Assembly (NCBI GenBank): GCA_965116225.1 | Contig: OZ220495.1 | Span: 2,424,393-2,488,392, forward strand | Source: Dehalococcoidia bacterium | GTDB taxonomy: Bacteria; Chloroflexota; Dehalococcoidia; Bin125 | Length of the DNA: 64,000 nucleotides | Direction of reading: 5' to 3' | Shown: positions 973 through 33,248 of the stretch, piece by piece | Numbering within the stretch: the first letter of the stretch is position 1 | How the letters are laid out: each line of letters begins with the position of its first letter | Notes under the pieces: model-generated | What the model saw: only the letters and a program-made list of their open reading frames with translations | Database searches by the model: none | What the model was told of the DNA's origin: nothing | Made by a program: the position numbers and the translations under genes

Positions 973-989
973 GCTGCGCCCAAGGCGAC

Positions 990-9539: not shown

Positions 9540-10374
9540 TTTCAGGGAATCGCGACTGAGGGTCAACGGCGTCGATGGCGTGATTACTGAGCTGGGCGAC
9601 CACGACCGCAGGGAAGCGGTCGTCTGCCTTCACTCTGTGCCTGGCTCCGGTCGTGATTTCCAGTTCGTGATGCCCGCGATTGGCGAGATCATGCGCGTGG
9701 TCGCCATCGATCTGCCCGGATTCGGCAGAGCCGACAAGCCGCAAACGTTCCCATACTCAATCGAAGGGTACCAGACTTGGCTTGCGCCGGCGCTGACGGA
9801 GCTGGGCGTCGACAGGGTTCACTTGCTGATGCATAGCTTCCACACGCAAACGGGTCTGATGTGGGCGGCGATGCATCCTGATCAGTGTGCGTCGATCATG
9901 CTGCTCGACGGCGGCGTGCTGGAGAACTACCCTGGTAACCTGGTCGCCAACATCTGGCGGACGAAGTTCGCCGGTGAGATCCTCCAGTTGATCACCACAC
10001 GGCCGGCATTCAAGCTGTTTATGCGCTGGGGCAATCCGAAGGGATTGCATTCACAGTGGCTCGATGAGCTGATCACCGAGGACGACCGGGACACGCGCCG
10101 GGTCACGCTGGAGCTGTATCGAAACACTAACTTCGACGACGGTCACATCCTGCGCAAGGCGCTGGCGCCGCATCGCAAGCCGGCGCTCGTGATCTACGGC
10201 AAGAACGATCCATTCATCAGTTGGCGGTACGCGGAGCGGCAGCGGGAGACGTTCCCCGATGCCGAGGTCCACGTCTGGGACGATTGCGGCCACTTCCCGC
10301 ACATCCAGCATCCGCAGCGGACGGCGGCGGCGGTGACGAAGTTCCTGCCCTCGCAGGCGGGGCGCGACGCTTAG
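9532..10374 (+). CDS. Alpha/beta-fold hydrolase
   Basis: VVCLHSVPGSGRDFQF...VHLLMHSFHTQTG (nucleophile-elbow region) and a C-terminal ...DDCGHFPH (catalytic His region). ATG at 9532 overlaps the upstream stop (ATGGCTGA). The ORF-track start at 9448 is a non-coding extension. Confidence 0.75.
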   Translation: MADFRESRLRVNGVDGVITELGDHDRREAVVCLHSVPGSGRDFQFVMPAIGEIMRVVAIDLPGFGRADKPQTFPYSIEGYQTWLAPALTELGVDRVHLLMHSFHTQTGLMWAAMHPDQCASIMLLDGGVLENYPGNLVANIWRTKFAGEILQLITTRPAFKLFMRWGNPKGLHSQWLDELITEDDRDTRRVTLELYRNTNFDDGHILRKALAPHRKPALVIYGKNDPFISWRYAERQRETFPDAEVHVWDDCGHFPHIQHPQRTAAAVTKFLPSQAGRDA

Positions 10375-11714
10375 TCGAGCGCGCCCAGTTCGACCGCCAG
10401 ATTAGCGGTCTTCTTCATTTCTTCGAAACGGGCGGCCTGTTCGCGAGCGCGTTCTTCGGCACCTTTGTGGTGGTACTCCTCGCTGATGCGGTTGGAACTG
10501 GTGACCACATCGAAGCCGTAGGGCTGGTAGATTGGGATCTCCTCGTCCGAGAGTTCGATCAGCATCTCATTGCGCTCGGCTTTGCGCTTGAACGCTTCCT
10601 CGATGTAAGGCGCGAGTTCCTCTTCCTTGCGGGCGACGCGCTCGGCTTCGAATTCCTTGAACTCGGGCATCACGTCGCGCGCGAAGATCTCGAGCGACTC
10701 GCAGATATGTTCGTGGCGGTTGTTGCCGGCCTGCTGGATGAAGACGGATTGATCGACGCCGCAGTCGGCGAAGATGCGCAGGTGCTCGCGCAGCTCGTCG
10801 GGCGTGCCGATGCCGCCCTCGCCTTGTCGCGGCCAAGTGTCGCGCAGCTGTTCCCATGCTTTCCAAATGTTGGTGCGACCGGGCTTGTGCATGCCGGCGG
10901 CGTAGTGGTGCCCGAGCGCGAACTGGAAGAAGCGGAAGCCATCGCCGCCGCGACGCTCTGCTTCGTTCCCGTCGGGGTGCACCGAGAAGGAAGACACCAT
11001 CGCGATGTTGGCGTTGACCGTGTGGCCGATCGGCACGCACTCGGTCTTGATCGTTTCGTAGTAGTCGTTGACCCAGTGCTTGGCCTCTTCGGGGTCGATG
11101 AAAGCGAAAGTGAGCGCCCCGATGCCGAGCCTGGCGGCAAGATGGATCGTGTCGCGGTTGGAGCAGGCGACCCAGAGCGGCGGATGCGGCTTTTGCACCG
11201 GTTTGGGCACGACGTTGCGCGTCGGCATCGAGAAGTACTTGCCCTCGTAGCCCGGATACGGGTTCATCGCCAGCATGTTGGCGACCTGCTCGACAGTCTC
11301 GAGCCACATTGAGCGGCGCTCTTCCGGGTTGACGCGGTAGCCTTCCAGCTCGGCGCGCGAGGCGGACTCGCCGGTCCCGAACTCGACGCGACCGTTGGAG
11401 ACGAGATCGAGCGTCGCGATCCGCTCGGCGACTCGGGCCGGGTGGTTATAGCCAGGCGGCATCAGCACGATGCCGTGACCGAGGCGGATGTTCTTGGTCC
11501 GCTGCGAGGCGGCTGCCAGAAAGACCTCTGGCGCCGATGAGTGCGAGTACTCCTCGAGGAAGTGATGCTCGACCTCCCAGGCGTGATCGATGCCGAGTTG
11601 GTCCGCCAACTCGACCTGGTCCAACGCGTCCTGGAACAGCTGCTGTTCCTGTCCTTCGCCCCACGGCTTGGGCAGCTGGTGTTCGTAGAAGATTCCGAAT
11701 CGCATTGCAGGCAC
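10371..11714 (-). CDS. LLM-class flavin-dependent oxidoreductase with long C-terminal coiled extension
   Basis: MRFGIFYEHQLP...LGIDHAWEVEHHF...LDLVSNGRVEFGTGESAS are typical LLM TIM-barrel motifs. The ~90-aa charged C-terminal tail is typical of the large-LLM subfamily. Confidence 0.8.
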   Translation of the reverse strand: MPAMRFGIFYEHQLPKPWGEGQEQQLFQDALDQVELADQLGIDHAWEVEHHFLEEYSHSSAPEVFLAAASQRTKNIRLGHGIVLMPPGYNHPARVAERIATLDLVSNGRVEFGTGESASRAELEGYRVNPEERRSMWLETVEQVANMLAMNPYPGYEGKYFSMPTRNVVPKPVQKPHPPLWVACSNRDTIHLAARLGIGALTFAFIDPEEAKHWVNDYYETIKTECVPIGHTVNANIAMVSSFSVHPDGNEAERRGGDGFRFFQFALGHHYAAGMHKPGRTNIWKAWEQLRDTWPRQGEGGIGTPDELREHLRIFADCGVDQSVFIQQAGNNRHEHICESLEIFARDVMPEFKEFEAERVARKEEELAPYIEEAFKRKAERNEMLIELSDEEIPIYQPYGFDVVTSSNRISEEYHHKGAEERAREQAARFEEMKKTANLAVELGALD

Positions 11715-12532: not shown

Positions 12533-13870
12533 CTACGCGCGATTTCGCCGCAGACGCCCGTGTACGTGGACGAATCGAGCAGGCCGTCCAGACATATGGC
12601 AGCGCACCTCTTCGTCGCCGATCAACAGATCGCGGAACGGAACTTGCTGCACGGCGTAGGCTTGCGCGTGTTCGTAGGCGATGTCGTGGGCGCGTTGTCG
12701 GCCGATGCGCTCGCCGAGCGCGAGCATGATGCGCTCGCTCATAATCAGACCGCCGGACAGATCGAGGTTCACTCGCATTCGCTCCGGCTTCACCCCGATG
12801 CCTTCGAACAGGACGATCATCCGGGCAAGGATGTCGCCGAATCAGCTCGACCGATCCGTGGACGGCGCGTTCGGCCATGACGCTGGGGAGCCGTCGGCTT
12901 CGTGCTCGGTGCGCATCGCGTCGAGGGCGAGCGGAAACAGGGTTGTCCAGCTGGGCGGCTGCGGCGCGGAGGTCCTGCGAGAGCTTTGGATTGCGTTTCT
13001 GCGGCATCGTGCTGCTGCCGACGGTGCCGGGCGGGACGAGTTTCTCGATCTCACCGAACTCGGGCTTCAGCAGCATGTACGTCTCGTCGGCGATTTTGTG
13101 GCAGGTCGCGGCGAGCATAGCCAGGATCGCGGTGTAATCAGCATGTATAGTCATGGCTGGTTCGTCCCGGAACCGGCATCGGCGGCAGCCCCAGGTATTC
13201 CGCCATGCCTTGCTGGACGGCGAGCCCGAGCGCGCCGAACGATGCCAGCGTGTCTGCGGCGGTGCCGAGCATAGCGACGAAGATGCGCGGTTCGGCGTCA
13301 TGCAAACGCTCGACGTGGCGATAGATCTCGTCAATCCAGACGCTGATCTTGTAGCCGAAGGTGGCTGGCACGGCGTGTTGACCGTGCGTGCGTCCGGCGC
13401 ACGGATCGTCGGTGTGGTGCTCGGCAACGGCGCGAGCGTCGTGAGCACCTGCCCGATATGTCCAAGCACGATCGCATGCGCCTTGCGCAGCTGCAGCATG
13501 TCGCCGGTCTGAGTGATGTTCTGCGTCGTCGCCCCCCAAGAACGTATCAGCCGACTCCGTCGCCGAGGATTCGATCCAATTCCTAGATCAGCGGTACCAG
13601 CGGATGCGCCGTCACGGTGAGGATCGCCTCGATCCGTGCCATGTCCAGCAGATCGGGCCGACAGTGCTCGGCGATCTAGGCTGCGGCATCGGCGGGAATT
13701 GAATTATGCCCAGGTCCGCCTCCCCGCAGGCGAGCGCGGCTTCCACGCCCAGCCACGCCTGCCAGCGCGCCTCGCGCGTGAGGAGGTCTTGAATGCCAGG
13801 ATCCGGAATGCGCGCCGCGGTGGGTCGGTGTTGCATGAGCGGTTTCGCTTTCTTCCGTGGCAGGCAAAGT
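12533..13870 (-). pseudogene. Fumarate-lyase-family gene (3-carboxy-cis,cis-muconate cycloisomerase / adenylosuccinate lyase-like), at least 3 frameshifts
   Basis: Family segments appear in N-to-C order but in different frames. The N-terminal DLLTREARWQAWLGVEAALA lies in ORF 13612..14061. GRTHGQHAVPATFG lies in ORF 13138..13539. The signature GSSTMPQKRNP lies in ORF 12495..13499. The C-terminal NLDLSGGLIMSERIMLALGE lies in ORF 12533..12820. Confidence 0.6.
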
Positions 13871-13905: not shown

Positions 13906-15120
13906 ATGCTTGCGCCGCTTGAGGGTATACGGGTCGTCGAGGTCGCCAATTGGCTGGCGGCGCCCTCGGCAGCGGCGCTGATGGCCGATCTCGGTGCCGA
14001 CGTGATCAAGGTGGAACATCCCGGCGGCGATGCCTGGCGCACCACCCTGATGCGCGGCCAACAGGAGGATTTCAACCCCGAGACCGATGTGGACGCCGCG
14101 TTCGAGCTAGACAATCGCGGCAAGCGCGGCGTCGCGCTGTCGCTCGATCGACCGGGCGCGAGCGATGTCGTCAAACGGATGATCGCCGACGCCGACCTCT
14201 TCATCACTAATCTGACCGCGCCGCGCATCGAACGTTACGACCTGTCTCGCGCTTCGCTGCAGCGCCTCAACCCGCAGTTGATCTACGTCGTCCTGACCGG
14301 CTACGGCACGCGTGGACCCGACAGGGCCAAGACCGCGTTCGACTACTCAGCGTTCTGGTCGCGGTCGGGCATTATGAGCCTGATCGGCGAACCGGACGGC
14401 CCGCCGATGCCGTGCCGACCGGGTCAGGGCGACCATGCGACGGCGCTGAATTTACTTGCGGGCGCGCTGGCTGCCCTGCGCCTTCGCGATCTCACTAACG
14501 ACGGTCAATACGTCGAGGTGACTTTGCAACGCACGGGCGCGTGGACGATCGGTTCGGACCTATCGGCGGCGCTGATCACCAAGCGGCAACCATCGCGCAT
14601 CGACCGAGTGCAGCCCGGCAATCCACTGTTTAACGCGTACGAGACCGCCGACGGGCGCTGGTTGATGCTGGTGATGCCGACTGGAGATCGCTATTGGGCG
14701 CCAACCTGTCGAGCGCTGGGTCGTCTGGACCTGCTTGCCGATGATCGCTACGCCACCCTGCTCGGCCGCATGGAGCACAGCGCGCTGATCACGTCGGAGA
14801 TCGCGTCGGCGTTCCGCGCCAGGCCGCTTGGGGAATGGGCGCCGCTGCTGGACGCTGAAGCGCTGACCTGGGCACCTGTAGTCGAACTGCCTGAGCTGAT
14901 CGCCGATCCGCAGATGGAGGAGATGAACGCCTGGAGCGTGATCGATGGGCCGAACGGTCAGTTCCACACGCTCAATACGCCGTTCGAGATCGCCGGGGCG
15001 GACATTGGACCGCGCGGCCCCGCGCCCACAGCCGGGCAACATACGCATGAGGTGCTGAGAGAAGTCGGCCTGTCGGACGGCGAGATCGCCGCATTGGCCG
15101 AAAACGGCGCGCTCGGCTGA
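13906..15120 (+). CDS. CaiB/BaiF-family (class III) CoA-transferase
   Basis: N-terminal LEGIRVVEVANWLAAPSAAALMADLGADVIKVEHPGGD is the hallmark of family III CoA-transferases. 404 aa. Confidence 0.85.
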   Translation: MLAPLEGIRVVEVANWLAAPSAAALMADLGADVIKVEHPGGDAWRTTLMRGQQEDFNPETDVDAAFELDNRGKRGVALSLDRPGASDVVKRMIADADLFITNLTAPRIERYDLSRASLQRLNPQLIYVVLTGYGTRGPDRAKTAFDYSAFWSRSGIMSLIGEPDGPPMPCRPGQGDHATALNLLAGALAALRLRDLTNDGQYVEVTLQRTGAWTIGSDLSAALITKRQPSRIDRVQPGNPLFNAYETADGRWLMLVMPTGDRYWAPTCRALGRLDLLADDRYATLLGRMEHSALITSEIASAFRARPLGEWAPLLDAEALTWAPVVELPELIADPQMEEMNAWSVIDGPNGQFHTLNTPFEIAGADIGPRGPAPTAGQHTHEVLREVGLSDGEIAALAENGALG

Positions 15121-15140: not shown

Positions 15141-16316
15141 ATGTCGAAGTCAGTCGGAGCGTGCGTTATGGGTGAAGCGCTCGACCTCATCGTTCAGGCG
15201 GCGCGTCGGTTCGTGCGCAAGGATATCTGGCTACGCGAACGGCGCATCGATGCCAACGCAACGCAATTGCCGGCTGAGATGTTCGTAATCGTACGCAAGC
15301 GAGCGAGCGAACTAGGCATTGATCACCTGATGGCGCCGCGGGTGGACTCGGTCGGACCGCAGATTGATCTCCCCGATGCCGATCGCTTACGCATCGCCGA
15401 AGAGCTGTCGCAGCATCGCGCCGGGGTGCTCAATCCGGTCTACGGATTGTTCGATCCCGACCCGCCCGCGCAACTGTATGCCGGCACGGATGATCAACGG
15501 AGCCGCTTTCTGGAGCCCCTCCTGCGGAGGGAGGTCATCTGCTTCCGAGGGTTGGACGACCCGGATCTTGCGCATCTGCCGACTGATGGCGTGCGCATCC
15601 GGGCGCAACGACATCAGTCGGGATGGATGTTGGACGGCACCAGGCTGTTCGTCGCCGACGCCAATGATGCCGCTTTCGGCATCGTCTATTGCAATACGGA
15701 AGAAGTAGCCGGGCAGCGAACAGGCGTATCGGCGATCTTGGTCGAGAGTGACCGCATCGGTTTCCAGCGCTGGCGCGCGTGGCCGACGATTGCGGTTGGT
15801 CGCGACACGATGGAGCTCAATCTGTCCGCTGTCAAGGTGCCGCAAACGAACCTGCTTGGCGTTCCTAGTCGGGGACCGGAGTTTGCTAATGATCTGTCAC
15901 TGCGTCGGAGACTATTCACGGCGGCGTATCTGACCGGCGTGGCGTCGGCGGCGCAGGACATATGCCGCTCGGTGGTCTGGTCGCGGCGGATGCACGGCGC
16001 GCTGATCGCGCAGGGCGAACGAGCGCGGCTGGCGCTCGCCGACAACGAGATCGCGGTATCTGCGTCGCGGGCGCTGTATCTGTCCGCCGCGGAGCAGATC
16101 GAAGAGCTCGCGCTTGCCGCACTGTCGTTCGGTCTCGGGGCTGCGTCCTCGGTCGTCGAACGGGCAATGCTGCTACATGGCCCGGTTGGCGGCTCGTCGG
16201 ACCTACCGCTCGAGCGTTGGTCGCGCGAGTTGACCTGGACGCGGTTGAGTCTCGGCGGCGCAGATCAGCAGCGTTTGGCGATCGCACAACGATTGGCGAC
16301 TACGTTCAAGAAGTAA
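15141..16316 (+). CDS. Acyl-CoA dehydrogenase-like protein (divergent, possibly non-catalytic)
   Basis: ACAD-like C-terminal helical domain. The N-terminus is only weakly ACAD-like. Lies immediately downstream of the CoA-transferase. Confidence 0.5.
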   Translation: MSKSVGACVMGEALDLIVQAARRFVRKDIWLRERRIDANATQLPAEMFVIVRKRASELGIDHLMAPRVDSVGPQIDLPDADRLRIAEELSQHRAGVLNPVYGLFDPDPPAQLYAGTDDQRSRFLEPLLRREVICFRGLDDPDLAHLPTDGVRIRAQRHQSGWMLDGTRLFVADANDAAFGIVYCNTEEVAGQRTGVSAILVESDRIGFQRWRAWPTIAVGRDTMELNLSAVKVPQTNLLGVPSRGPEFANDLSLRRRLFTAAYLTGVASAAQDICRSVVWSRRMHGALIAQGERARLALADNEIAVSASRALYLSAAEQIEELALAALSFGLGAASSVVERAMLLHGPVGGSSDLPLERWSRELTWTRLSLGGADQQRLAIAQRLATTFKK

Positions 16317-16327
16317 CGGGGGATAAG

Positions 16328-17524
16328 CTACGAGTCGAGGTCGGGCAGCGGATCAAGAGCGGCGGATGCGATCAATTCGAGCCCGCGCGGCGTAATCGGT
16401 GGGTTGTGCAACGGGCCTCGAACATCTCGGTAGTAGCGTTCCAGAGGCTGCGAGCGGTGTAACGACACACCGCCGACCAGTCGCATGCAGCGATCGACGA
16501 CCTCGACCGCGAGATCGCCGGCATGAAGTTTAGCGGCGGCAATGCGAGGGCCAAGTTGCGCGTGCGCGTCCCTGTCGAGTTGATCCCAGGCTGATGCGGT
16601 CTCGTATAGCAGGGCGCGAGCAGACATGATGCGCAGATCGATCTCGCCGATCTGCGCGCGGACGAGGGGTAGACTGCCAATCACTCCAGGCGCGCCTGTC
16701 GGACGTCGGTTGCGGGCGAACTCGACGGTGTAGTCACGAGCCGCCTCGGCGACGCCGAGCGATGCGGCGGCGACGAGCAACGCGAACCAGGCGAAGTCGC
16801 CATACCGCTGTCCGGCGCGGGCTGGATCCTGGCGCACCAGAAACTCGTCGTCGCTGATCGCGACGTTCTCGAACCAGATATCGTGTGAGCCGGTCGAACG
16901 CAGTCCAACCACGTCCCACGTCTCCTCGATCCGCAATCCGGGCGAGTCGCGATGGACGGCGACGCGGGCCAGCATCTCTGATCCATCCTCCAGCGCGCAG
17001 TAGGTCAGGAACCAGGTCAAAGCCGGGGCGAGTGTAGTGAACGACTTGCGACCGTTGATGCGCCAGCGGCCAGGTCCCTCGGGCGTGAGGGCGGTCTGCG
17101 GTCTGCCGCCGCCCTGGGGCGAGCCGAGGTCGGGTTCAGTCGCGACCTGATTGCACAGCGCGCCGTCCTCGACAACCGAACGGAAGATGCGTTCTCGTAG
17201 CTGGTCCGGCCAGTTGCGATTCGAGCGCTCGGAACCGATTGACATCAGATGCATACCGCAAGCGAACGCCAGCGCCATATCGATCTTGGCCAGCGCCGTC
17301 TGAGCGGCAACGAGGTCGGCGAGCGCGCATTCCTCGCCGCCGTACTCGCGCGGAATCGGCGCGGAGAGCCAGCCGATCTCTCGGAGGATGTCGAACGATG
17401 CGAATGGGAAGCTAGCCTCGCGATCGTGTCGCTTGGCGTGTGCGGTCAGTGTCGCCGTATGCGGCACGAGTCGCCCGATCAGCTCCCGTCCGGCACGATT
17501 GGCGGGCGGAAGAGGCGACATCAA
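16328..17524 (-). CDS. Acyl-CoA dehydrogenase
   Basis: The ACAD three-domain pattern is present, including TEPDLGSPQGGGRPQT, GRWRINGRKSFTT and a C-terminal ...RYYRDVRG region. Confidence 0.8.
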   Translation of the reverse strand: MMSPLPPANRAGRELIGRLVPHTATLTAHAKRHDREASFPFASFDILREIGWLSAPIPREYGGEECALADLVAAQTALAKIDMALAFACGMHLMSIGSERSNRNWPDQLRERIFRSVVEDGALCNQVATEPDLGSPQGGGRPQTALTPEGPGRWRINGRKSFTTLAPALTWFLTYCALEDGSEMLARVAVHRDSPGLRIEETWDVVGLRSTGSHDIWFENVAISDDEFLVRQDPARAGQRYGDFAWFALLVAAASLGVAEAARDYTVEFARNRRPTGAPGVIGSLPLVRAQIGEIDLRIMSARALLYETASAWDQLDRDAHAQLGPRIAAAKLHAGDLAVEVVDRCMRLVGGVSLHRSQPLERYYRDVRGPLHNPPITPRGLELIASAALDPLPDLDS

Positions 17525-17551: not shown

Positions 17552-17869
17552 CTAGAGCACATCGCGCAGGCGTTTCAGCGCCCGCACTCGCACTTTACCT
17601 CGTTCCAGTGCCGGTCGCGAGGCGATGGTGATCGCCTCGCCAGTTGCAGGGTTGCGTCCCTGTCGCTCGGGTCGCGCTGTCTGAGGGACGATGTCGACCT
17701 TGATCAGCCCTGCGACGGTAACGGAACCAGGACCGCCTTTAGACAGATCTTCAACGATAACGTCGGCGAGCGCGTCGAGGACTTCGCTGACGTCGCGGCT
17801 CGCGATGTCGGTGCGTTCCTCAATCGCCTTGGCGATTTGCGCCTTGGTCTTCGGCTTTGCGTCGCTCAT
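17552..17869 (-). CDS. hup: HU/IHF-family nucleoid-associated DNA-binding protein
   Basis: 105 aa. KAQIAKAIEERTDIASRDVSEVLDALADVI...RNPATGEAITIASRPALE... matches the HU beta-arm (RNPxTGE). AT-richer upstream region. Confidence 0.9.
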   Translation of the reverse strand: MSDAKPKTKAQIAKAIEERTDIASRDVSEVLDALADVIVEDLSKGGPGSVTVAGLIKVDIVPQTARPERQGRNPATGEAITIASRPALERGKVRVRALKRLRDVL

Positions 17870-17996: not shown

Positions 17997-18905
17997 CTAC
18001 CCCAGCAACTCGGCGTGCGCGACTTCGGCGACCAGCGAGACCGCTGTCTCGAGCTTGCGCCGGCCGACAAATGCCGAGCGTCCGTAGAGCGGGCCGATTA
18101 CCTCCACCGCCTCCAAGGTGCTCATCGGCGTGGTGATCAGCGCGAACGACTCGCGTTCCGCGCGCTGGGCGATGTATGGCAAGGTCGGCTCGCCGCCGGC
18201 CAGGATCAGACAGAGCGGTTCGTAGTCGAGTGCGCCCAGGGCGATATCGATCCGGTCGTGTCGTGTGATCAGCGTCTTGTCGGGGTACTTGCGGAAGTAA
18301 TCCATGCCCTCATGTGCGCTCACCGGCCCGATCACTAGGTCGCGCGATGCTTCATCAAACAGCGCTTCGTCGCCCGAGAGCTTCCCGTCTATGGCGGGCG
18401 CGATGTCGCGAACGATCGGCGCGGCGAGGTGACGATCCTGAGGGAGGAGGCGAACGCTGGTCGCGCCCAGTCCGGTTAGCCTGGCGACAGCGGTGGCTTC
18501 GCCATGCTGGGGGACGCCATTGACGATGACCAGGTCTGGCTGCATGTCGGCCAGCGCGCGGGAGATCGTGTCGTCGTCGGCTTCGCCATGACGGACGATG
18601 AGGACGACTAGGTCGGACTCGATCCCCGCCGTGCCGTCCGCCTCGATGACGACGCGATCCGTGTCGTTGGGGATATCGGCGGCGGCCATCGGCGTTGCGG
18701 CGCTGCGGACGCCGTTGACGTAGGAGAACTGTTGCGCGTCGGATGCGGCGGACCGGTTGGGATTAGCGGAATCTGGAGAATCCGAGTGGTCGACGCGAGC
18801 CAAGCGAACCGTCGCACCGGTCGAACGAAGCGCGGCGGCAATGCCGCTGGCGACCGCCGACTTACCGTCGCCGCTCAGCGTGGACGTGACGAGTATGCGG
18901 GTCAC
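17997..18905 (-). CDS. Phosphotransacetylase-N-terminal-like protein (BioD-like P-loop plus DRTGG-type domain)
   Basis: RILVTSTLSGDGKSAVASGIAAAL is a BioD/CobQ-like P-loop. The C-terminal region (LCLILAGGEP...) resembles the DRTGG domain found N-terminal in Pta. The first ~165 aa of the listed ORF are Arg-rich junk, so a GTG start with GGAG RBS near 18905 is preferred. Confidence 0.45.
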   Translation of the reverse strand: MTRILVTSTLSGDGKSAVASGIAAALRSTGATVRLARVDHSDSPDSANPNRSAASDAQQFSYVNGVRSAATPMAAADIPNDTDRVVIEADGTAGIESDLVVLIVRHGEADDDTISRALADMQPDLVIVNGVPQHGEATAVARLTGLGATSVRLLPQDRHLAAPIVRDIAPAIDGKLSGDEALFDEASRDLVIGPVSAHEGMDYFRKYPDKTLITRHDRIDIALGALDYEPLCLILAGGEPTLPYIAQRAERESFALITTPMSTLEAVEVIGPLYGRSAFVGRRKLETAVSLVAEVAHAELLG

Positions 18906-19098: not shown

Positions 19099-19326
19099 AT
19101 GATGACCGAACATCGGCGCTCGGAACCACAGGCGTGGCCGCCGCCCGCCCCTGACTCGCCACGAGCGCGTCGCCGGCCGCCCGAACGGCACGCACATTGG
19201 ATCGATCCCGACAATCGGGCCGAAGAGCCTCGAGAGGGTACGCCGCGTCTGCTCTGGTGGGTGTTGGGCGGGCTACTGCTCTTCGGAGTGTTCTCCGTTC
19301 TGATTCGCGTCTTCTTAGTTCTCTGA
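19099..19326 (+). CDS. Possible small membrane protein (hypothetical)
   Basis: 75 aa from ATGATG with a single C-terminal TM helix (LLWWVLGGLLLFGVFSVLIRVFLVL). Sits in an otherwise empty 540-nt intergenic gap. No family recognised. Confidence 0.25.
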   Translation: MMTEHRRSEPQAWPPPAPDSPRARRRPPERHAHWIDPDNRAEEPREGTPRLLWWVLGGLLLFGVFSVLIRVFLVL

Positions 19327-19444: not shown

Positions 19445-21961
19445 ATGACGATTATATCATCGGACGCGAACGCGACTCCAGACGCGGATGCCGGACAGGA
19501 GACGCTGCTGGCGGGGGTGAGGGTGCTCGATCTGGCGACGCCGCGGGCGGAGATGGCGGGGCGTGTCTTGGCCGATATGGGTGCGGAGGTGATTAAGGTC
19601 GAACCGCCCACAGGCGTCGAGTCGCGGTGCCTGCCCCCCTTCAATGATGCCGATCCGCAGCGCTCGCTCTATTGGGCCGCTGTCGGGCTGGGCAAACGAA
19701 GCGTGGTGGTCGATCTTGAATCGGAAGCTGGCCGCTCCGACTTCCGAGCCTTGCTGGCGACCGCCGACGTCCTGATCGAGTCCTTCGATCCGGGTGCGAT
19801 GTCGAAGTGGGATCTGGGCTATAACGATCTGGCCCCGCAGCATCCCGACTTGATCTACGTCTCAGTCACGCCGTATGGACAGGACGGTCCGCATGCGCAT
19901 CGACCGGCGACCGATCTGACGATCGAGGCGGCTGGTGGATTGGTGGGTCTGCAAGGGGATGGCGACCGCCCGCCGGTTCCGGTCGGGTTGCCGCAGGCGT
20001 CGATGCATGCCGGCGTACAGGCGGCGGCGGATACGGCGATCGCGCTGCGGGAGCGCGATCTGTCGGGGCTCGGACAGCATCTGGACGTGTCGATGCAGGC
20101 GGCCGTCGTCTGGACGCTGATGAACGCGACCGGATTTCCGCCCAACACCGGCGATGATCCGCCAGGTACCTGCGCGCAACGCAGTGTGGGCGGCGACAGC
20201 CCCAGCGGCGCGGTGATGGGCGTGCATCCCTGCCTCGACGGATATGTCGTTTTCAGCATCGTCCCTGGCGGGCTGGGGCTACGACATTCGGCCAAGGTGC
20301 TGAAGTGGATCGCGGAGGAGGGCGAGCTGATCGGCGGGTTGGCGGGCGTAGATATCGACGAATGGGTGGCGAACGTGGGCAGTCTGGTCATGGAAGATCC
20401 AGCCGAAGCCGGTCGGCAGGTCGCCATTGCGACGGAGAATCTGCACCATTTCGTGGCCAGGCGCACGATGGCGGAGTGCTTTGCCCGCGCCGTCGCCGAC
20501 GGATTCATGATGGCTCCGCTGTACACGATGGAGGACATCGCCAACGACCAGCACTTGGCGGCGCGGGATTTCTGGATCGAGCTCGACGGGTACCGATATC
20601 CCGGACCGTTCGCGAAGCTCTCGCGAACGCCGTTGCAGTTGCGCCGGGCGTCGCCGACGTTGGGACAGGATCAGGAGCTGCTCGCCCAGGTTGGCAGCGC
20701 GCCGACGCGGATCGCGAGGACGCCGAAGTCGTCCAACGGCGTGCGCGGCGCGGACGGCGGCGCGTTGACCGGCGTCAGGATCGCCGACTTCGCCTGGGTC
20801 GGCGTCGGACCGCTGATCTCCAAATCGATGGCGGACCACGGCGCGACCGTGGTGCACATCGAATCGGCGACGCGGCCCGATGTGCTGCGCCTCGCGCCTC
20901 CCTTCAAGGACAACCGGCCCGGCATGGACCGCGCCCAGTTCATGGCCAACTTCAACTCGTCCAAGCTCGGTGTCGCCTTGCGGCTCGATACCGAGCAGGG
21001 GCGCGATTACGCGCGACAGTTGATCGACTGGGCCGATGTGGTGGTTGAGTCGTTCACGCCGGGAACGATGAAACAGTTCGGTTTCGACTATGACACGCTG
21101 AGCAAGGATCGTCCGGAGTTGATCATGCTGAGCACGTGTTTGCGTGGACAGACGGGACCGGAATCGAGCTATCCCGGATTCGGACTGCAGGGTGCCTGCC
21201 TGTCGGGTCTGCATCGCATCACCGGATGGCCGGATCGGCAACCGTCCGGCACCTGGGGCGCGTACACCGACTTCATCAATCCTCGGTTCGGCTCAGGCGT
21301 GCTCGCAGCGGCGATTCGATATCGCGATCGGACCGGGAATGGTCAGTACATCGATCTGGCGCAGAGCGAGGCGGGGATTCACTTCGTCGCTCCGCTGCTG
21401 CTTGATTACCTGGAGAATGGGCGGATCGCGCAAGCGCCCGGCCACGATTCTCTGTACGGCGTCCCGAACGGGGTGTTCCGCGTCGGCGACGGCGAACGCT
21501 ATGTGGCCATCGCGACGGAGACCGCCCAGCAGTGGCGCGCGCTGCGAGACGCAACCGGTCTGGAGCATTGGTCGGGAACGGCATTCGACGACCTGTCAGT
21601 AAGGATTGGCGCCAAAGCGGAGATCGAAGCCATCATCGCCGAGTGGTGCGCCCCGCAGACCGCCGATGCTGTGGTCGAGCGGCTCACCGGGGCCGGTGTC
21701 CCCGCGTCGCTGGTGGAATGGCCCTCAGACCTCTATCAGGATGCCCAGCTCGCGCATCGGAACTTCTTCGTCAGCTTGCACCACTCAGTGATGGGTCCCA
21801 CGCCGTATGACGGACTCGTAACCAGGTTCTCAGGCGCCACGGCGCGCTTGCGTCGGGCGGCGCCGGCGATCGGCGAGCACACGCACTACGTCCTGTCGGA
21901 AATGCTGCAGGCGTTGGACGAGGAGATCACGGACGCGCTTGTTGCGGGCGCGCTTCAGTAG
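19445..21961 (+). CDS. Tandem-fused double CaiB/BaiF-family CoA-transferase
   Basis: 838 aa with two complete family III CoA-transferase units (GVRVLDLATPRAEMAGRVLADMGAEVIKVE... and LTGVRIADFAWVGVGPLISKSMADHGATVVHIE...). GAGAGG RBS before ATG. Confidence 0.85.
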   Translation: MTIISSDANATPDADAGQETLLAGVRVLDLATPRAEMAGRVLADMGAEVIKVEPPTGVESRCLPPFNDADPQRSLYWAAVGLGKRSVVVDLESEAGRSDFRALLATADVLIESFDPGAMSKWDLGYNDLAPQHPDLIYVSVTPYGQDGPHAHRPATDLTIEAAGGLVGLQGDGDRPPVPVGLPQASMHAGVQAAADTAIALRERDLSGLGQHLDVSMQAAVVWTLMNATGFPPNTGDDPPGTCAQRSVGGDSPSGAVMGVHPCLDGYVVFSIVPGGLGLRHSAKVLKWIAEEGELIGGLAGVDIDEWVANVGSLVMEDPAEAGRQVAIATENLHHFVARRTMAECFARAVADGFMMAPLYTMEDIANDQHLAARDFWIELDGYRYPGPFAKLSRTPLQLRRASPTLGQDQELLAQVGSAPTRIARTPKSSNGVRGADGGALTGVRIADFAWVGVGPLISKSMADHGATVVHIESATRPDVLRLAPPFKDNRPGMDRAQFMANFNSSKLGVALRLDTEQGRDYARQLIDWADVVVESFTPGTMKQFGFDYDTLSKDRPELIMLSTCLRGQTGPESSYPGFGLQGACLSGLHRITGWPDRQPSGTWGAYTDFINPRFGSGVLAAAIRYRDRTGNGQYIDLAQSEAGIHFVAPLLLDYLENGRIAQAPGHDSLYGVPNGVFRVGDGERYVAIATETAQQWRALRDATGLEHWSGTAFDDLSVRIGAKAEIEAIIAEWCAPQTADAVVERLTGAGVPASLVEWPSDLYQDAQLAHRNFFVSLHHSVMGPTPYDGLVTRFSGATARLRRAAPAIGEHTHYVLSEMLQALDEEITDALVAGALQ

Positions 21962-22119
21962 CGGGTGTTGACACTGACTGGAGGGCGTCGGGGTTGGAGC
22001 CGACGATCAAGTAGACTTCGAAGCCAGCTTCGATCCTGTGACCCGACGGGTCGGCGCGATCACGATGGACGACCAGCGCGTCTGCGCCTAACGCGAGACG
22101 CGGGGAAGGATTCCGAGCG

Positions 22120-23301
22120 ATGGGACAGCGCACGATGCGCGGGCAAACGGCGATCATCGGCGTCGGCGAGACGACCTACTACAAGCGTGGTCGTTCACCT
22201 GACGCGGAGTTCAAACTCGTCGTCGAGGCAATCCTGAAGGCGAGCGCGGATGCAGGCATTGACCCACGCAAGATCGACGGGTTCGCGTCGTACTCCAACG
22301 ACCGCAACGACCCGTCGCGGATTGCGGCGGCGCTCGACATCCATGACCTGCGCTTCTCCAACATGGAGTGGGGCGGCGGCGGCGGCGGCGGTTCGGCGGC
22401 GTGTTGTCACGCCGCTGCCGCGATCGCAACCGGCCTGGCCAACACGGTGGTGGTCTTTCGAGGGCTGGCGCAGGGTCAGTTCGGTCGTTTTGGGCAGGGC
22501 GCGCGCGTGCCGCGTGTGCGCGGCGACCAATCCTATACGGCACCCTATGGTCTGATGTCGCCAGCGCAGTCGTTCGCGATGCGGGTGCACAAGCTGTTCG
22601 ACGACCACGGGATCATGCAGGACACGCTTAAGGCCTGCTCGCTGGCGTCCTATCACCATGCGCAGAACAACCCGCGCGCGGTGATGTATGGGCGTCCGCT
22701 GACCCCTGAAGACTACGATCAGTCGCGCTGGATTGTGGAGCCGTTCCACCTGTTCGACTGCTGTCAGGAGAACGACGGCGCGGCGGCGATGATTTTCGTC
22801 TCGGCCGAACGGGCCAGGGACTACGCCAAACCGTCGGTCTATTTCCTCGGTGGCGCGGTCGGATCGCCCAATCGCGCTGGATCCGGCTCGCACAACGCGA
22901 CCGATTACGCCACCTCGAATTTCAAGACCGTCGCCCCGCGTATGTACGACATGGCGCAGGTCAAACCGGAGGAGGTCGACGTCGCGCAGGTCTACGAGAA
23001 CTTCACCGGCGGCGTGGTGATGAGCATCATTGAGCACGGACTGACGACGTATACGGAAGCGAACGAGTTCATCACCTTCGACAACCTCATCGCTCCAAGC
23101 GGCAAGATGCCGCTCAACACCAGCGGCGGCAATCTGGCTGAGTGCTACATGCACGGCCTGGAGCTGAACATCGAGGCGGTCCGCCAGGTACGCGGCGAGT
23201 CCTGCAACCAGGTCGACGACGTCAATGTGTCGCTGGTCGCGTCGGGTCCGATGGTGACGCCGGTGTCCGACATGATCGTCGGTTCAGAGGCGGTGCTCTA
23301 A
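22120..23301 (+). CDS. SCPx-type thiolase / lipid-transfer-protein-like thiolase-fold enzyme
   Basis: GQTAIIGVGETTYYKRGRS...IDGFASYSNDRND and a C-terminal CYMHGLELNIEAVRQVRG match nonspecific lipid-transfer-protein thiolases. Contains an in-frame (GGC)7 poly-Gly tract. Confidence 0.8.
   Translation: MGQRTMRGQTAIIGVGETTYYKRGRSPDAEFKLVVEAILKASADAGIDPRKIDGFASYSNDRNDPSRIAAALDIHDLRFSNMEWGGGGGGGSAACCHAAAAIATGLANTVVVFRGLAQGQFGRFGQGARVPRVRGDQSYTAPYGLMSPAQSFAMRVHKLFDDHGIMQDTLKACSLASYHHAQNNPRAVMYGRPLTPEDYDQSRWIVEPFHLFDCCQENDGAAAMIFVSAERARDYAKPSVYFLGGAVGSPNRAGSGSHNATDYATSNFKTVAPRMYDMAQVKPEEVDVAQVYENFTGGVVMSIIEHGLTTYTEANEFITFDNLIAPSGKMPLNTSGGNLAECYMHGLELNIEAVRQVRGESCNQVDDVNVSLVASGPMVTPVSDMIVGSEAVL
22366..22386 (+). 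repeat. (GGC)7 trinucleotide repeat inside the thiolase gene, encoding seven Gly (WGGGGGGGS)
   Basis: Direct reading of 22366-22386, ggcggcggcggcggcggcggc. Confidence 0.9.
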
Positions 23302-23750
23302 TGGCGAATTCGGGAGCGTACTATTTGGGCGAGGGCATGCCCGCCCCAGCCCCGTCGATCGATGGACTGGACACCGAGTACTGGGAAGGCGTCAAGCGTC
23401 ACGAGTTGTTGGTTCAGCATTGCAATGCCTGCGACCGACCCCAGTTCGGCCCCGAGTGGGTTTGCCATCGCTGTCACTCATTCGATCTGGGCTGGAAGCC
23501 GGTCGAAGGCAACGGGTGCATCTTCTCTTGGGAGCGCGTCTGGCATCCCGTGCACCCGGCGTTGCAGGACTCGTGTCCGTACCTCGTCGTGCTGGTCGAG
23601 CTGCCCAATCATGAAAATGTCCGTATGGTTGGCAATCTGATCGGCGACCCGATGCAGACCGTCGAGATCGGCGCGGAAGTCCGCCCGTACTTCGAGGACC
23701 ACGAAGGCGACGATCCATTCACTCTCGTGCACTGGGAAGTGGTCGAGTAA
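23301..23750 (+). CDS. DUF35 OB-fold/zinc-ribbon protein (thiolase partner)
   Basis: CNACDRPQFGPEWVCHRCHS zinc ribbon followed by an OB-fold. Start overlaps the thiolase stop (TAATG). This is the classic SCPx-thiolase/DUF35 pairing. Confidence 0.8.
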   Translation: MANSGAYYLGEGMPAPAPSIDGLDTEYWEGVKRHELLVQHCNACDRPQFGPEWVCHRCHSFDLGWKPVEGNGCIFSWERVWHPVHPALQDSCPYLVVLVELPNHENVRMVGNLIGDPMQTVEIGAEVRPYFEDHEGDDPFTLVHWEVVE

Positions 23751-31734: not shown

Positions 31735-32586
31735 CTAGCCGCCGTTGAATTCGGCCTTGACCTCGGTGTAGCGATCTAGAAGTGGCGTCACCGTGCCGGC
31801 CTCCGCGGGCGGCAGACCGAATATGATCCGCTGGAAACCCATCTCGATCAGATTCCGTACCTGTTGCGGATTCGGTCCGACGCCGAAGACGCTGCGCTGA
31901 ATCGTGTCGAAATCGCGATCGGCGCGATCTGCGGCGGCTCTGAGCTGCTCCATATCAGCCCGTAGGTCGCCGCGACCGGCAATCGGAAGCCAGCCATCGC
32001 AGTAATCGACGACGCGGTCGAATGCCCACTTGGACTGCGCGCCCAGCAGGATATCGGGACCGTTCTCCTGGACAGGCTTTGGGTAGCTCCAGACCGGGTC
32101 GAAGTTGATGAACTCGCCGCGGAACTCGGGCTCATCCTGCGTCCAGAGCTCGCGCCAGGCAAGGACGATCTCTCGCGTCACTTTCCAGCGATCCTTGAAG
32201 TTCCAGCCGTGGTTCTCGAGCTCCTCGGCATTCCAGCCGGCCCCGATGCCCAGGATCAGTCGTCCGCTGGAGATCATGTCCAGCGATGCGGCTGATTTTG
32301 CTGCAACCAGCACATCGTGCTCGGGCACGAGCAGGATGCCGGTGCCGACCTTGAGCGTCTCGGTCGCCGCCGCCGCCGCCATCAGCGAGACGAATGGGTC
32401 GTGCGTGTGCCAATATTCTTGCGGCAGATCGCCACCGCCCGGCCAAGGCGACATGCGTGAGGTGGGAATGTGCGTGTGCTCGGGGAACCAGAGCGATTCG
32501 AAACCGCGCGCTTCCACCTCGCGCGCTAGCTCGGGCGGTTGAATCGCGTAATCGGTCGGGAACATCGATACACCGAAGTCGGTCAT
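31735..32586 (-). CDS. LLM-class F420-dependent oxidoreductase
   Basis: FGVSMFPTDYAIQPPELAREVEARGFESLWFPEHTHIP...GIGAGWNAEE is the TIGR03619-like pattern. Confidence 0.8.
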   Translation of the reverse strand: MTDFGVSMFPTDYAIQPPELAREVEARGFESLWFPEHTHIPTSRMSPWPGGGDLPQEYWHTHDPFVSLMAAAAATETLKVGTGILLVPEHDVLVAAKSAASLDMISSGRLILGIGAGWNAEELENHGWNFKDRWKVTREIVLAWRELWTQDEPEFRGEFINFDPVWSYPKPVQENGPDILLGAQSKWAFDRVVDYCDGWLPIAGRGDLRADMEQLRAAADRADRDFDTIQRSVFGVGPNPQQVRNLIEMGFQRIIFGLPPAEAGTVTPLLDRYTEVKAEFNGG

Positions 32587-32655: not shown

Positions 32656-33183
32656 TCAGATCGTCAGACCGCCCAGTCCCAGTAGACCGCGAGCATGTTC
32701 GATTTCTCCGATGTGCCGGTAGCCGTGGAAGAGCAGCATGCCGGTCAGCGCCTGCCAAGTGGTCATGGGCGGCGTGGGCTTGATCACGATCTCTGCGTCG
32801 AGATGGTCCACGCTGAGGCTCCCGACCCACTCGCGCGTCGCCGACCAGACCTGCCGCTGATACGATAGCCAGCCGTCGACATCGTTAAGCAGGACGGCGT
32901 CTGCCTCCGCTTTGGTCATGCCCGTGCCCTGCGAGGTTCGATGCAAGCTGAAACGCTGATCCCACTCGCCATTGATCCAGACGGTCGGTTGCCGCTGCGC
33001 GACCCAGTTAACGATGTTGTCTTCAGTGCGGACGTAATGCCAGAGCGAGAAGAAGGCGCTGACGCCATCTCCGGCCGGCCGGGCATTCCACTGCTCGGCG
33101 GTCATGTCGGGTACCGCGCGGTCGAGCATTCCGTGCATTCCGTCGAGACCTTGCCGGATCACTTCGAGCTGTGTCAGATTCAT
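32656..33183 (-). CDS. DinB-family protein
   Basis: LWHYVRTEDN...LLFHGYRHIGEIEHARG is the His triad pattern of DinB_2. Confidence 0.7.
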   Translation of the reverse strand: MNLTQLEVIRQGLDGMHGMLDRAVPDMTAEQWNARPAGDGVSAFFSLWHYVRTEDNIVNWVAQRQPTVWINGEWDQRFSLHRTSQGTGMTKAEADAVLLNDVDGWLSYQRQVWSATREWVGSLSVDHLDAEIVIKPTPPMTTWQALTGMLLFHGYRHIGEIEHARGLLGLGGLTI

Positions 33184-33248
33184 CCTGAACCTCCTCACCG
33201 TTGGCGAACGACCTGATCATATCCTGAAGCGGGTGTGAGGAGTCAAAC

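Follow-up and report, generated by a model that had tools for sequence, protein, structure and literature searches.

What is achieved by placing a CoA-transferase gene beside a thiolase-fold/DUF35 gene pair? The question is raised by a 64,000-nucleotide stretch of DNA (the window) from a marine or sponge-associated Chloroflexota bacterium, in which open reading frames for proteins of 838, 393 and 149 aa follow one another on the plus strand, as originally called (Table 1). We suggest that their most likely role is the ATP-free loading of CoA onto an acid, followed by retro-aldol cleavage. The original prediction, made from the sequence, is partly supported: the fused transferase, the thiolase-fold protein with its DUF35 neighbour and the suggested retro-aldolase stand, while the rarity of the fusion and a catalytic Asp in both transferase halves do not. 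All parts fall in known families, and the pairing is a modest variant and no new kind of system.

Table 1. Features of the locus and its upstream neighbours, in window coordinates
Feature	Position	Strand	Basis
Single-domain family III CoA-transferase, 404 aa	13906..15120	+	Pfam PF02515, 313 bits
Divergent acyl-CoA dehydrogenase (ACAD), 391 aa	15141..16316	+	Weak Pfam ACAD N, M and C matches
ACAD-fold "type 2" flavoprotein	16328..17524	-	Nearer SfnB, DszC and nitrososynthase-type monooxygenases than true ACADs
DRTGG-domain protein, like N-terminal region of phosphate acetyltransferase	17997..18905	-	Pfam DRTGG
Small ORF, 75 aa, hydrophobic C-terminal tail, upstream of transferase	19099..19326	+	Protein-level conservation
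Two-domain fused BbsE-BbsF-type family III CoA-transferase, 838 aa	19445..21961	+	Pfam PF02515, twice
Ser186 codon, N-half counterpart of catalytic Asp (no Asp)	20000..20002	+	Alignment
Asp609 codon, predicted catalytic nucleophile, motif AYTDF	21269..21271	+	Aligned to 9fn0_B NYTD Asp
Intergenic motif ATCAAGTA(G/A)ACT	22006..22017	+	Spacer alignment
Thiolase-fold Ltp2-like predicted retro-aldolase, 393 aa	22120..23301	+	Pfam Thiolase_C_1; best solved match 6ok1_A
Tyr292 codon, YENF motif	22993-22995	+	Counterpart of Ltp2 catalytic Tyr
Tyr343 codon, second catalytic Tyr counterpart	23146-23148	+	Alignment with Ltp2
Stand-alone DUF35 protein, 149 aa, C4 zinc ribbon and OB fold	23301..23750	+	Pfam zf-ChsH2, OB_ChsH2_C

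A fused CoA-transferase with one predicted active site

The two CoA_transf_3 (PF02515) matches expected in the 838-aa protein were both found by Pfam (555 bits), in an N-terminal half of approximately residues 1-430 and a C-terminal half of approximately residues 431-838, joined by a poorly conserved linker of low pLDDT (residues ~420-440). In the AF2 model (pLDDT 91.7, pTM 0.93) both halves are complete folds, with Foldseek TM values of 0.94 and 0.87 against the two chains of BbsEF. This succinyl-CoA:(R)-benzylsuccinate CoA-transferase (PDB 9fn0, 9fol) is also the best solved match in sequence for either half: residues 25-423 align with 9fn0_A (134 bits) and residues 440-830 with 9fn0_B (215 bits). 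Gene order and sequence length point to chain A as BbsE and chain B as BbsF.

The Asp of the 9fn0_B NYTD motif, D178 by residue count and the residue of the D178-CoA adduct in the description of 9fol, aligns with D609, a position occupied by Asp in 234 of 235 homologs. The corresponding N-half column, holding Ser186 here, contains Asp in 4ed9 and 10uh and Tyr in 9fn0_A; among the 235 homologs, close relatives have A, S or G there and distant ones mainly Y, F, W or H, and Asp is absent from the commonest residues of the column. The reading of the protein as two complete CoA-transferase units therefore holds for the folds but not for the catalytic Asp, which is retained in the C-half alone. Since BbsEF likewise has one Asp-bearing subunit and one with a non-Asp residue (Tyr), we conclude that the 838-aa protein is a fused pseudo-heterodimer with a single active site. 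An Asp-less half before an Asp-bearing one is also the order indicated for split pairs (n=4), whose upstream subunits score better against N-halves and downstream subunits against C-halves. The 838-aa protein differs from the benzylsuccinate (Bbs) system in being one polypeptide instead of two subunits, and no BbsG, BbsH or BbsCD genes lie near its gene.

The view that such a fusion is unusual was not borne out, as, among the 150 top-ranking clusters at 50% identity, almost all are collinear two-domain relatives (~120 of them full length, 770-870 aa). The architecture was known already from DddD and PtmU4, with 2401 sequences reported in 2018. By published description, these two enzymes resemble the 838-aa protein in their tandem family III domains, length (~800 aa), poorly conserved linker and catalytic Asp conserved in the C-terminal domain only, which in PtmU4 is required for activity (PMC6006322). 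It is nevertheless highly improbable that the protein resembles DddD in function, as a CoA-transferase/lyase for DMSP or a similar osmolyte, or PtmU4, as a thioacid-forming enzyme. Even though these are the sole characterised two-domain type III enzymes, both doing chemistry past simple transfer, and DddD is the top Swiss-Prot match reported for SAR202 CaiB-type proteins (PMC5395668), DddD is also reported to branch outside the remaining two-domain enzymes, Pfam scans show no transporter near the operon, and the N- and C-halves both find their best solved match in BbsEF, a plain transferase. The genomic context is likewise unlike that of DddD and PtmU4, and the extra lyase and sulfur-transfer chemistries have no support for the 838-aa protein.

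A thiolase-fold protein without the thiolase nucleophile

Downstream of the transferase, Pfam bore out both the thiolase-fold protein and the separate DUF35 protein. The best solved match of the 393-aa protein is Ltp2 (6ok1_A, 239 bits, E 8e-70) from the Ltp2-ChsH2(DUF35) steroid side-chain aldolase, compared with 48-93 bits for true thiolases. A WGGGGGGG loop (residues 84-91) stands where the thiolase nucleophile would be, with a Gly, as in Ltp2, aligned to the Cys column of the true thiolases 7yvy and 6esq, and Tyr takes the place of His in the HDCF motif of thiolases. Y292 and Y343 correspond to Y294 and Y344 of TcLtp2; the catalytic roles of the Ltp2 tyrosines are described in PMC12329534. 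The poly-Gly loop, YENF motif and Y343 are invariant or nearly so in 120 orthologs, with the catalytic Tyr positions kept in at least 119 of them. The suggestion of a retro-aldolase fits these observations, the nucleophilic Cys being missing, both Ltp2 tyrosines kept and Ltp2 the best solved match; judging by its residues, the protein looks like a carbon-carbon-cleaving aldolase and not a thiolase.

It is scarcely probable, then, that the 393-aa protein works as a true thiolase and completes ordinary beta-oxidation by BbsAB-like thiolysis with DUF35. The thiolase fold and its Thiolase_C_1 match, source annotations reading "acetyl-CoA acetyltransferase" and a weak NCBIfam match to BbsB (53 bits) would agree with that reading, as would the architecture of the benzoylsuccinyl-CoA thiolase BbsAB (PDB 7pxp), which also combines a stand-alone DUF35 with a thiolase-fold subunit and shares its operon with an E/F-type CoA-transferase. 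However, BbsB is a true, Cys-containing thiolase (48.5 bits against the 393-aa protein), whereas the enzyme downstream of the transferase here is aldolase-like, with Gly in the nucleophile column and inside an invariant loop; CtSal, with Gly at the same position, is stated to be incapable of thiolysis (PMC12329534).

The likeness to Ltp2 has its limits. The 393-aa protein falls under the NCBIfam PRK07855 cut-off (349 versus 469), and the YDHF motif of Ltp2 is YENF here, so that the oxyanion-hole His is replaced by Asn (N294); because of this replacement, catalysis may depart from that of Ltp2. The DUF35 protein is free, unlike that of ChsH2, which forms the C-terminus of a MaoC hydratase, and neither ChsH1/H2 and ChsE1/E2 nor steroid ring-degradation genes are present in the 64-kb window. 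The bile-acid aldolase Sal-Shy(DUF35) (PDB 9myr) is likewise made up of a DUF35 partner and an aldolase of thiolase fold, but Sal scores only 96 bits against the 393-aa protein and has a YDCY motif, with Cys as acid, and Gln at the second-Tyr position, neither of which is found here.

Given that YENF is unlike YDHF and YDCY, the two motifs of characterised aldolases, that aldol reactions are reversible and that the related TbSLP has weak malonyl-CoA decarboxylase activity, the pair might perform some other Cys-independent CoA-ester chemistry, such as decarboxylation or a biosynthetic aldol-type condensation. We consider this improbable in view of the strict conservation of both Ltp2 catalytic tyrosines and of the catabolic nature of the recurrent neighbours (hydratases, ACADs, CoA-transferases and monooxygenases).

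The 149-aa DUF35 protein is predicted to be the partner subunit of the aldolase-like protein. The two genes are coupled through a real TAATG stop/start overlap (23299-23303), and the best solved matches of the DUF35 protein are 9myr_B (Shy), which ranks first, and 6ok1_B (ChsH2). Its zinc-ribbon cysteines (C41, C44, C55 and C58) follow the canonical C-x2-C-x10-C-x2-C spacing, giving a C4-type ribbon as in ChsH2, in contrast to the C3H1 ribbon of Shy.

Linkage of transferase and cassette across genomes

The thiolase-like gene had been described as directly following the transferase. The order is correct, but the genes are not immediately adjacent, being divided by a 158-nt spacer. An alignment of the window with loci L001, L008 and L091 reveals one conserved element in it, ATCAAGTA(G/A)ACT, with 8 of 12 columns invariant and the remaining spacer variable. 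Because of this spacer and its motif, joint transcription of the transferase with the aldolase-like/DUF35 cassette is only putative.

The order transferase, aldolase-like, DUF35 is held in seven of nine Chloroflexota loci with a transferase at least 51% identical, even among close relatives in which the flanking block is differently arranged. It may be that the adjacency is a product of lineage history, the cassette being autonomous with a job of its own and the transferase serving another pathway. Lone cassettes with 61-93% identity are spread over Chloroflexota, Gammaproteobacteria, Acidobacteriota and metagenomes from soil or the sea, and have many kinds of neighbours (Amidohydro_2 in 29 of 83 loci, and also SDR, GST, PrpD and HpcH), while the transferase is far less conserved (~30-47% identity for distant two-domain relatives of other lineages). 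A two-domain transferase is present at 4 of 83 cassette loci, and most two-domain transferase loci are without the cassette, which is found at ~5 of 80. One locus (L019) has a transferase 71% identical and no cassette, and the spacer itself agrees with separate roles. We regard this explanation as unlikely, because the gene order survives rearrangement of the flanks and because independent cases of the pairing involve transferases that are distant or split: L126 has a distant two-domain enzyme and a hot-dog hydratase pair, a Variovorax plasmid has a split transferase pair and hot-dog proteins (one annotated as MaoC-family), and L037 and L086 are further examples. In Mycobacterium tuberculosis, Rv1866, which we take to be a ~780-aa double CaiB-like protein, adjoins Rv1867, presumably a thiolase-like protein of lipid-transfer type; the two would match the pairing here, and a literature search found no functional data on them.

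Proposed pathway

We propose that the three frames form a putative operon for ATP-independent activation of a carboxylic acid and subsequent carbon-carbon cleavage. The sequences themselves show how the domains are arranged, that one transferase half alone has the Asp, that the thiolase nucleophile is missing while both Ltp2 tyrosines are kept, and that the genes stay linked. The chemistry, substrate class, CoA donor and CoA recycling that we infer would be as follows. The fused transferase would take CoA from a donor acyl-CoA and load it onto the substrate acid, folding as an intramolecular pseudo-heterodimer with covalent intermediates on Asp609 and the Asp-less N-half as structural partner. 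The resulting acyl-CoA would be converted to a 3-hydroxyacyl-CoA by a dehydrogenase and a hydratase encoded outside the operon, unless the beta-hydroxyl group is present on the substrate from the start. The thiolase-fold protein, bound to its DUF35 partner with zinc ribbon and OB fold, would then cut the C-alpha/C-beta bond by a retro-aldol mechanism, with Tyr292 as base and Tyr343 as acid as in Ltp2, yielding an aldehyde or ketone and a short acyl-CoA. The latter could be reused as CoA donor, similar to the Bbs pathway, where the acyl-CoA product of BbsAB, succinyl-CoA, is the donor for BbsEF (PMC10818641). Taken jointly, we rate these four steps as somewhat more probable than their failure. 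The whole 64-kb window encodes neither a hydratase nor a 3-hydroxyacyl-CoA dehydrogenase, which counts against the scheme, as do the many loci where cassette and two-domain transferase occur apart; the CoA-dependent degradation module originally envisaged is therefore no more than plausible as one integrated unit.

Upstream neighbours

The single-domain CoA-transferase favours neither the N- nor the C-halves of the fused family. The 391-aa ACAD gene is probably co-transcribed with it, and the best solved matches of its product are ordinary ACADs (~80 bits). Only this gene upholds the earlier mention of two ACADs, as the second product, whose best solved matches are 5gj7 and 5z8t (275 bits), ahead of nitrososynthases and DszC, and whose top NCBIfam match is SfnB, is a type 2 flavoprotein. 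An upstream lyase gene is a frameshifted pseudogene. The DRTGG gene starts with GTG, is divergent from the transferase gene, a position also held in L001, L008, L019 and L091, and its product weakly matches positions 196-362 of the NCBIfam Pta model. The 75-aa frame has a counterpart in a called 76-aa gene (L001:9648-9878).

A single active site in the fused 838-aa pseudo-heterodimer

Three ORFs were found where they had been placed from sequence inspection (see the table of features): a fused two-domain CoA-transferase (838 aa), a thiolase-fold protein (393 aa) and a stand-alone DUF35 protein (149 aa), the latter two genes being referred to hereafter as the cassette. Two CoA_transf_3 matches had been expected in the 838-aa protein, and PF02515 was indeed matched in two stretches (555 bits, Pfam). 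Full-length alignments pair residues 25-423 (N-half) with chain A of the succinyl-CoA:(R)-benzylsuccinate CoA-transferase BbsEF (PDB 9fn0), and residues 440-830 (C-half) with chain B (215 bits, far above other solved enzymes), while the two halves share 27% identity with one another. With 34 input sequences, AlphaFold2 gave a confident model (pLDDT 91.7, pTM 0.93) whose best structural matches are the two BbsEF chains (TM 0.94 and 0.87); prediction was poor only for the N-terminus, one loop and linker residues 430-433, the last with pLDDT below 50. Each half is thus a complete family III fold.

In the C-half, D609 of the AYTDF motif aligns with the NYTD aspartate of 9fn0 chain B, which is D178 by residue count; PDB 9fol is described as a D178-CoA adduct. 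D609 is kept in 234 of 235 aligned full-length two-domain homologs. The equivalent residue of the N-half is S186, where BbsEF chain A has Tyr, and in the 235 homologs this column holds Ala, Ser or Gly in close relatives and mostly Tyr, Phe, Trp or His in distant ones, Asp not being among the commonest residues. The original prediction of two complete units in one chain therefore stands as far as the folds are concerned but not for the catalytic Asp, which is retained in the C-half alone, an outcome that the prediction had itself named as counting against it. Since both folds are complete and the Asp is confined to the C-half, we conclude that the 838-aa protein is a pseudo-heterodimer fused into one chain, with a single active site; as judged from the alignment, each chain would form one catalytic unit, not two.

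Two-domain transferases are common and have split counterparts

Two-domain enzymes are described as having tandem domains in each chain, a poorly conserved linker and the Asp in the C-terminal domain only (PMC6006322), and the 838-aa protein shares the tandem domains, the weak linker and the C-terminal Asp. In PtmU4 of this class the C-terminal Asp alone is conserved and is required for activity, and DddD, the first two-domain enzyme to be characterised, forms an outgroup to the others (PMC6006322). No DddD family was returned by an NCBIfam search with the 838-aa protein, and Pfam scans revealed no transporter beside the operon. The fusion had been thought unusual, a view that does not hold: 2401 two-domain sequences have been counted (PMC6006322); among the best 150 clusters (50% identity) from a search of 1.84 billion representative proteins, most are ~800 aa long and collinear across the whole query; and a scan of one genome per species recovered 80 two-domain loci, in Dehalococcoidia, Acidimicrobiia, Gammaproteobacteria, Binatia and Desulfobacterota. 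In SAR202, CaiB-type proteins are expanded, some with DddD as their best Swiss-Prot match (PMC5395668).

Four two-gene pairs (the BbsEF chains and pairs from Aromatoleum aromaticum EbN1 plasmid 2, a Variovorax plasmid and a Chloroflexota contig) were scored against the N- and C-halves of 235 fused proteins. The upstream or Asp-less subunit scored higher against N-halves in all four (medians of 173 vs 60 bits in one example), and the downstream, Asp-bearing subunit scored higher against C-halves (236 vs 85 bits in one example). The homodimer-type CaiB encoded in the window showed no preference for either half. These preferences argue that the fused and split transferases are versions of the same asymmetric heterodimer. 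The split E/F-type pair of EbN1 plasmid 2 (L006, 66351-68755) is 37% identical to and collinear with the fused protein, and immediately follows the genes for two UbiD-family decarboxylases and a UbiX prenyltransferase.

BbsEF resembles the 838-aa protein in pairing an Asp-less with an Asp-bearing unit and is the best solved match of both halves. However, the identities are only ~33% and 26%, the two units form one chain here, and further bbs genes are absent from the surroundings; we read the 838-aa protein as BbsEF-like in architecture and not as an ortholog.

The cassette encodes a putative Ltp2-like aldolase and its predicted DUF35 partner

Among solved structures, Ltp2 (6ok1_A), a steroid side-chain aldolase from Thermomonospora curvata, scores highest with the 393-aa protein (239 bits), followed by an uncharacterised Sphaerobacter protein (144 bits), the bile-acid aldolase Sal (96 bits), archaeal-type thiolases (93 and 66 bits) and BbsB, of the benzoylsuccinyl-CoA thiolase BbsAB (48.5 bits). 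Public records name the family 'acetyl-CoA acetyltransferase', and a true thiolase (SCP2/SCPx, BbsB included) would be in keeping with the fold. Against this, the nucleophilic Cys of the true thiolases 7yvy and 6esq aligns with a Gly in a WGGGGGGG loop, and where thiolases read HD(A/C)F the protein has YENF, so that the thiolase His is absent too. Judging by these replaced residues, it could not work as a thiolytic enzyme, and the public label is probably wrong.

In Ltp2, Tyr294 of the YDHF motif acts as base, Tyr344 as acid and the His forms the oxyanion hole, whereas Sal has a YDCY motif with a catalytic Cys, a Gln at the second Tyr position and a C3H1 DUF35 (PMC12329534). Both tyrosines of Ltp2 have aligned counterparts here, Y292 (120 of 120 orthologs) and Y343 (119 of 120), with the His of YDHF changed to Asn294 and the Asp to Glu293. 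YENF does not vary among the 120 orthologs, and the poly-Gly loop and NTSGGNLAECYMHG show hardly any variation. A Sal-type aldolase is disfavoured by YENF in place of YDCY, by the presence of Y343 and by a C4 ribbon in the DUF35 protein. At the same time, the score against PRK07855, the NCBIfam family that contains Ltp2, was 349, below the 469 cut-off. The most fitting reading of the 393-aa protein is an Ltp2-like aldolase from a separate YENF subfamily that is so far uncharacterised.

The 149-aa protein carries a C-x2-C-x10-C-x2-C ribbon (C41, C44, C55, C58), which is the canonical DUF35 pattern (PMC12329534), followed by an OB fold; among solved structures it comes closest to the Sal-binding and Ltp2-binding DUF35 domains. 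It is free-standing like BbsA, whereas the DUF35 domains of ChsH2 (partner of Ltp2) and Shy (partner of Sal) are fused to a MaoC hydratase. A TAATG overlap joins its ORF to the 393-aa ORF, pointing to translational coupling. It is predicted to be the partner subunit of the aldolase-like protein. In every ortholog locus inspected a DUF35 gene was located directly 3' of the thiolase-like gene by gene call or tblastn.

The transferase-cassette link is a minority arrangement

Among loci with a transferase at least 51% identical to the 838-aa protein, the order transferase, aldolase-like protein, DUF35 is kept in L001/L002, L008, L091, L090, L092 and L010. The cassette is lost in L019, where the transferase is present, and L012 is altered, with a hot-dog-like ORF, DUF35 and two ACADs. 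The cassette is also found beside distant or split transferases, with further variants in L037 and L086. One such locus (L126) combines ABC permeases, a 30%-identical two-domain transferase, an FAS1_DH/MaoC hot-dog pair, the aldolase-like and DUF35 genes and a crotonase. In another, on the Variovorax plasmid, a split transferase pair is accompanied by genes for a thiolase-family protein and a Zn-ribbon OB-fold protein and by two small ORFs: one bears a MaoC-family dehydratase annotation, and the other, hypothetical, is only weakly similar to a MaoC-like protein of L003 (24%, 48 bits).

The link is nevertheless infrequent from either side: the cassette occurs in ~5 of the 80 two-domain transferase loci, and a two-domain transferase in 4 of 83 cassette loci. 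The cassette itself is strikingly conserved, with 61-93% identity from Chloroflexota to Gammaproteobacteria, Acidobacteriota and metagenomes of soil and sea. Unsupervised clustering was contaminated by shadow ORFs lying over the two cassette genes, and neighbour counts in the 83 loci are restricted to Pfam-confirmed clusters: SDR (11), single-domain CaiB (10), GST (9), Zn-ADH (8), MaoC hydratase and ACAD (7 each), crotonase (6), PrpD (5) and HpcH-type lyase (4). The leading neighbour is an Amidohydro_2 protein of ~400 aa (ACMSD/LigW-type), encoded immediately 3' of the cassette in 29/83 loci (L100-L112 and others), often with GST, SDR, PrpD, ACAD, CaiB and an HpcH-type CoA-ester lyase nearby. 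This context is apparently commoner than the transferase context.

The 838-aa and 393-aa ORFs are separated by a 158-nt spacer that is variable in four related loci except for the conserved motif ATCAAGTA(G/A)ACT, which may have a regulatory function. Scans for promoters and terminators over 17.4-24 kb stayed at background level, and an Rfam scan of the window returned one tRNA and nothing else. The window has a G+C content of 60-66% throughout. Those homologs that carry names belong to MAGs of Chloroflexota and Dehalococcoidia, several of them apparently from sponge metagenomes, to go by isolate and sample names. An exact look-up of the 838-aa sequence in the contig collection gave no match, and a literature search on DUF35, CoA-transferases and aldolases in Chloroflexi yielded no earlier account of the operon.

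Proposed reactions and possible roles

We suggest that the fused transferase would load CoA onto an acid without ATP, and that the resulting ester would be converted to a 3-hydroxyacyl-CoA by enzymes encoded elsewhere, unless the substrate is a beta-hydroxy acid to begin with. The entire 64-kb window lacks genes for a hydratase or a 3-hydroxyacyl-CoA dehydrogenase; the hot-dog hydratase pair of L126 and the hot-dog-type ORFs of the Variovorax plasmid represent the activity expected for this step. The aldolase-like/DUF35 complex would then split the ester into a carbonyl compound and a short acyl-CoA. The latter may be re-used as CoA donor, as documented for succinyl-CoA between BbsAB and BbsEF (PMC10818641). 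Resemblance to Ltp2 suggests a substrate with a bulky or branched beta-carbon. In its logic the system would be a hybrid: as in Bbs, an E/F transferase is combined with a thiolase-fold enzyme assisted by DUF35, and as in Ltp2, cleavage would be retro-aldol and not thiolytic. It is set apart from BbsEF, BbsAB, Ltp2 proper and Sal by feature tests.

Two known pathways were considered and rejected. A steroid side-chain pathway was set aside as the default: the window lacks genes for ChsH, ChsE and ring degradation, and many free-living bacteria of sea and soil carry the cassette, a distribution that argues against steroids as its general substrate. Against a Bbs-like anaerobic arylsuccinate pathway, equivalents of BbsG, BbsH and BbsCD are missing and the thiolase-fold protein is Cys-less.

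A rather improbable reading of the present locus is that the YENF cassette represents an uncharacterised and very widespread family of C-C lyases, coupled in this Chloroflexota lineage to the single-site fused transferase as a self-priming, ATP-free loop, in which the short acyl-CoA freed by cleavage may serve as CoA donor for the next substrate molecule. If that were true, CoA ester in catalytic amounts would be enough to remove side chains from carboxylated, recalcitrant organic matter or from host-derived lipids and sterols.

Expanded families of flavin monooxygenases and CaiB-type CoA-transferases are believed to let SAR202-type and sponge-associated Chloroflexota oxidise recalcitrant dissolved organic matter (PMC5395668). 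The locus offers a concrete, testable pairing, in which a fused transferase with one active site is predicted to feed an aldolase-type C-C cleaving enzyme. To our knowledge, the reactions after CoA loading in such Chloroflexota are largely guesswork. Each component belongs to a known family and the fusion itself is already known and common, so that, as things stand, known families are extended and no new principle is added. The more useful results are the single-site asymmetry, the connection between fused and split forms and the reassignment of the 'acetyl-CoA acetyltransferase' cassette to an aldolase-type subfamily, which opens a widespread label to correction. These would gain weight if the substrate were an abundant marine or host-derived acid. 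We found no functional data on Rv1866/Rv1867 in the literature, and nothing useful under the PDB codes 9FN0, 5Z8T and 5GJ7.

Genes around the module

Features of the window discussed in the text
Feature	Position	Strand	Remarks
540-aa ORF	939-2561	+	DNA methylase (N6_N4_Mtase) with C-terminal HNH endonuclease domain
Three luciferase-like monooxygenases, DinB-family protein, CofD (F420 biosynthesis)	10371-11714, 31735-32586, 59018-59938, 32656-33198, 50062-51558
Adenylosuccinate-lyase-like gene	12590-13836	-	Lyase_1/ADSL_C; broken over at least four reading frames
Single-domain CaiB	13906-15120
Divergent ACAD	15141-16316
ACAD-type-2 flavoprotein	16328-17524	-	Matches 5gj7, 5z8t (275 bits), then nitrososynthases, DszC; top NCBIfam match SfnB
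HU-like gene	17552-17869
DRTGG-domain protein, ~300 aa	17997-18905	-	Resembles N-terminal regulatory region of phosphate acetyltransferase
Small ORF, 75 aa	19099-19326	+	Just upstream of transferase; Pro/Arg-rich N-terminus, hydrophobic C-terminal tail
Fused transferase, 838 aa	19445-21961	+	Pfam: two CoA_transf_3 stretches
Spacer motif	22006-22017	+	ATCAAGTA(G/A)ACT
Thiolase-fold protein, 393 aa	22120-23301	+	Pfam: Thiolase_C_1
DUF35 protein, 149 aa	23301-23750	+	Pfam: zf-ChsH2 and OB_ChsH2_C
Carboxyltransferase (acyl-CoA carboxylase beta type) and hydantoinase A/B pair (oxoprolinase or acetone-carboxylase type)	39005-40591 and 43341-46987	-	Downstream of the module
MmeI-type restriction-modification enzyme	52763-55503	-	Two overlapping ORFs

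The small ORF upstream of the transferase is conserved with a called 76-aa gene of L001 (9648-9878). The DRTGG gene is divergent from the fused transferase in the window and in L001, L008, L019 and L091, a position more constant than that of the aldolase-like/DUF35 cassette. Of the two ACADs of the original prediction, the divergent one is upheld, but the ACAD-type-2 flavoprotein is closer to monooxygenases of the SfnB, DszC and nitrososynthase types than to true ACADs and probably acts as a flavin monooxygenase, not as a dehydrogenase. The lyase-like gene, intact in L001 (454 aa), is a pseudogene here because of its broken frames; to its left lie an EthD gene and a luciferase-like monooxygenase gene, both intact. 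The module is bounded on the right by PEP carboxylase on the opposite strand, followed by housekeeping genes. An 82%-identical relative has the same genes with the left block inverted and adjoining PEP carboxylase.

The luciferase-like monooxygenases, DinB-family protein and CofD are in keeping with the wealth of flavin/F420 monooxygenases described for Chloroflexota of the SAR202 type. A hydantoinase pair also occurs near the Variovorax transferase/thiolase/DUF35 cluster (L007). Of the two MmeI-type ORFs, one comprises the N-terminal, helicase-spacer and methyltransferase domains and the other the target-recognition domain, a layout that suggests a frameshift or a split gene.
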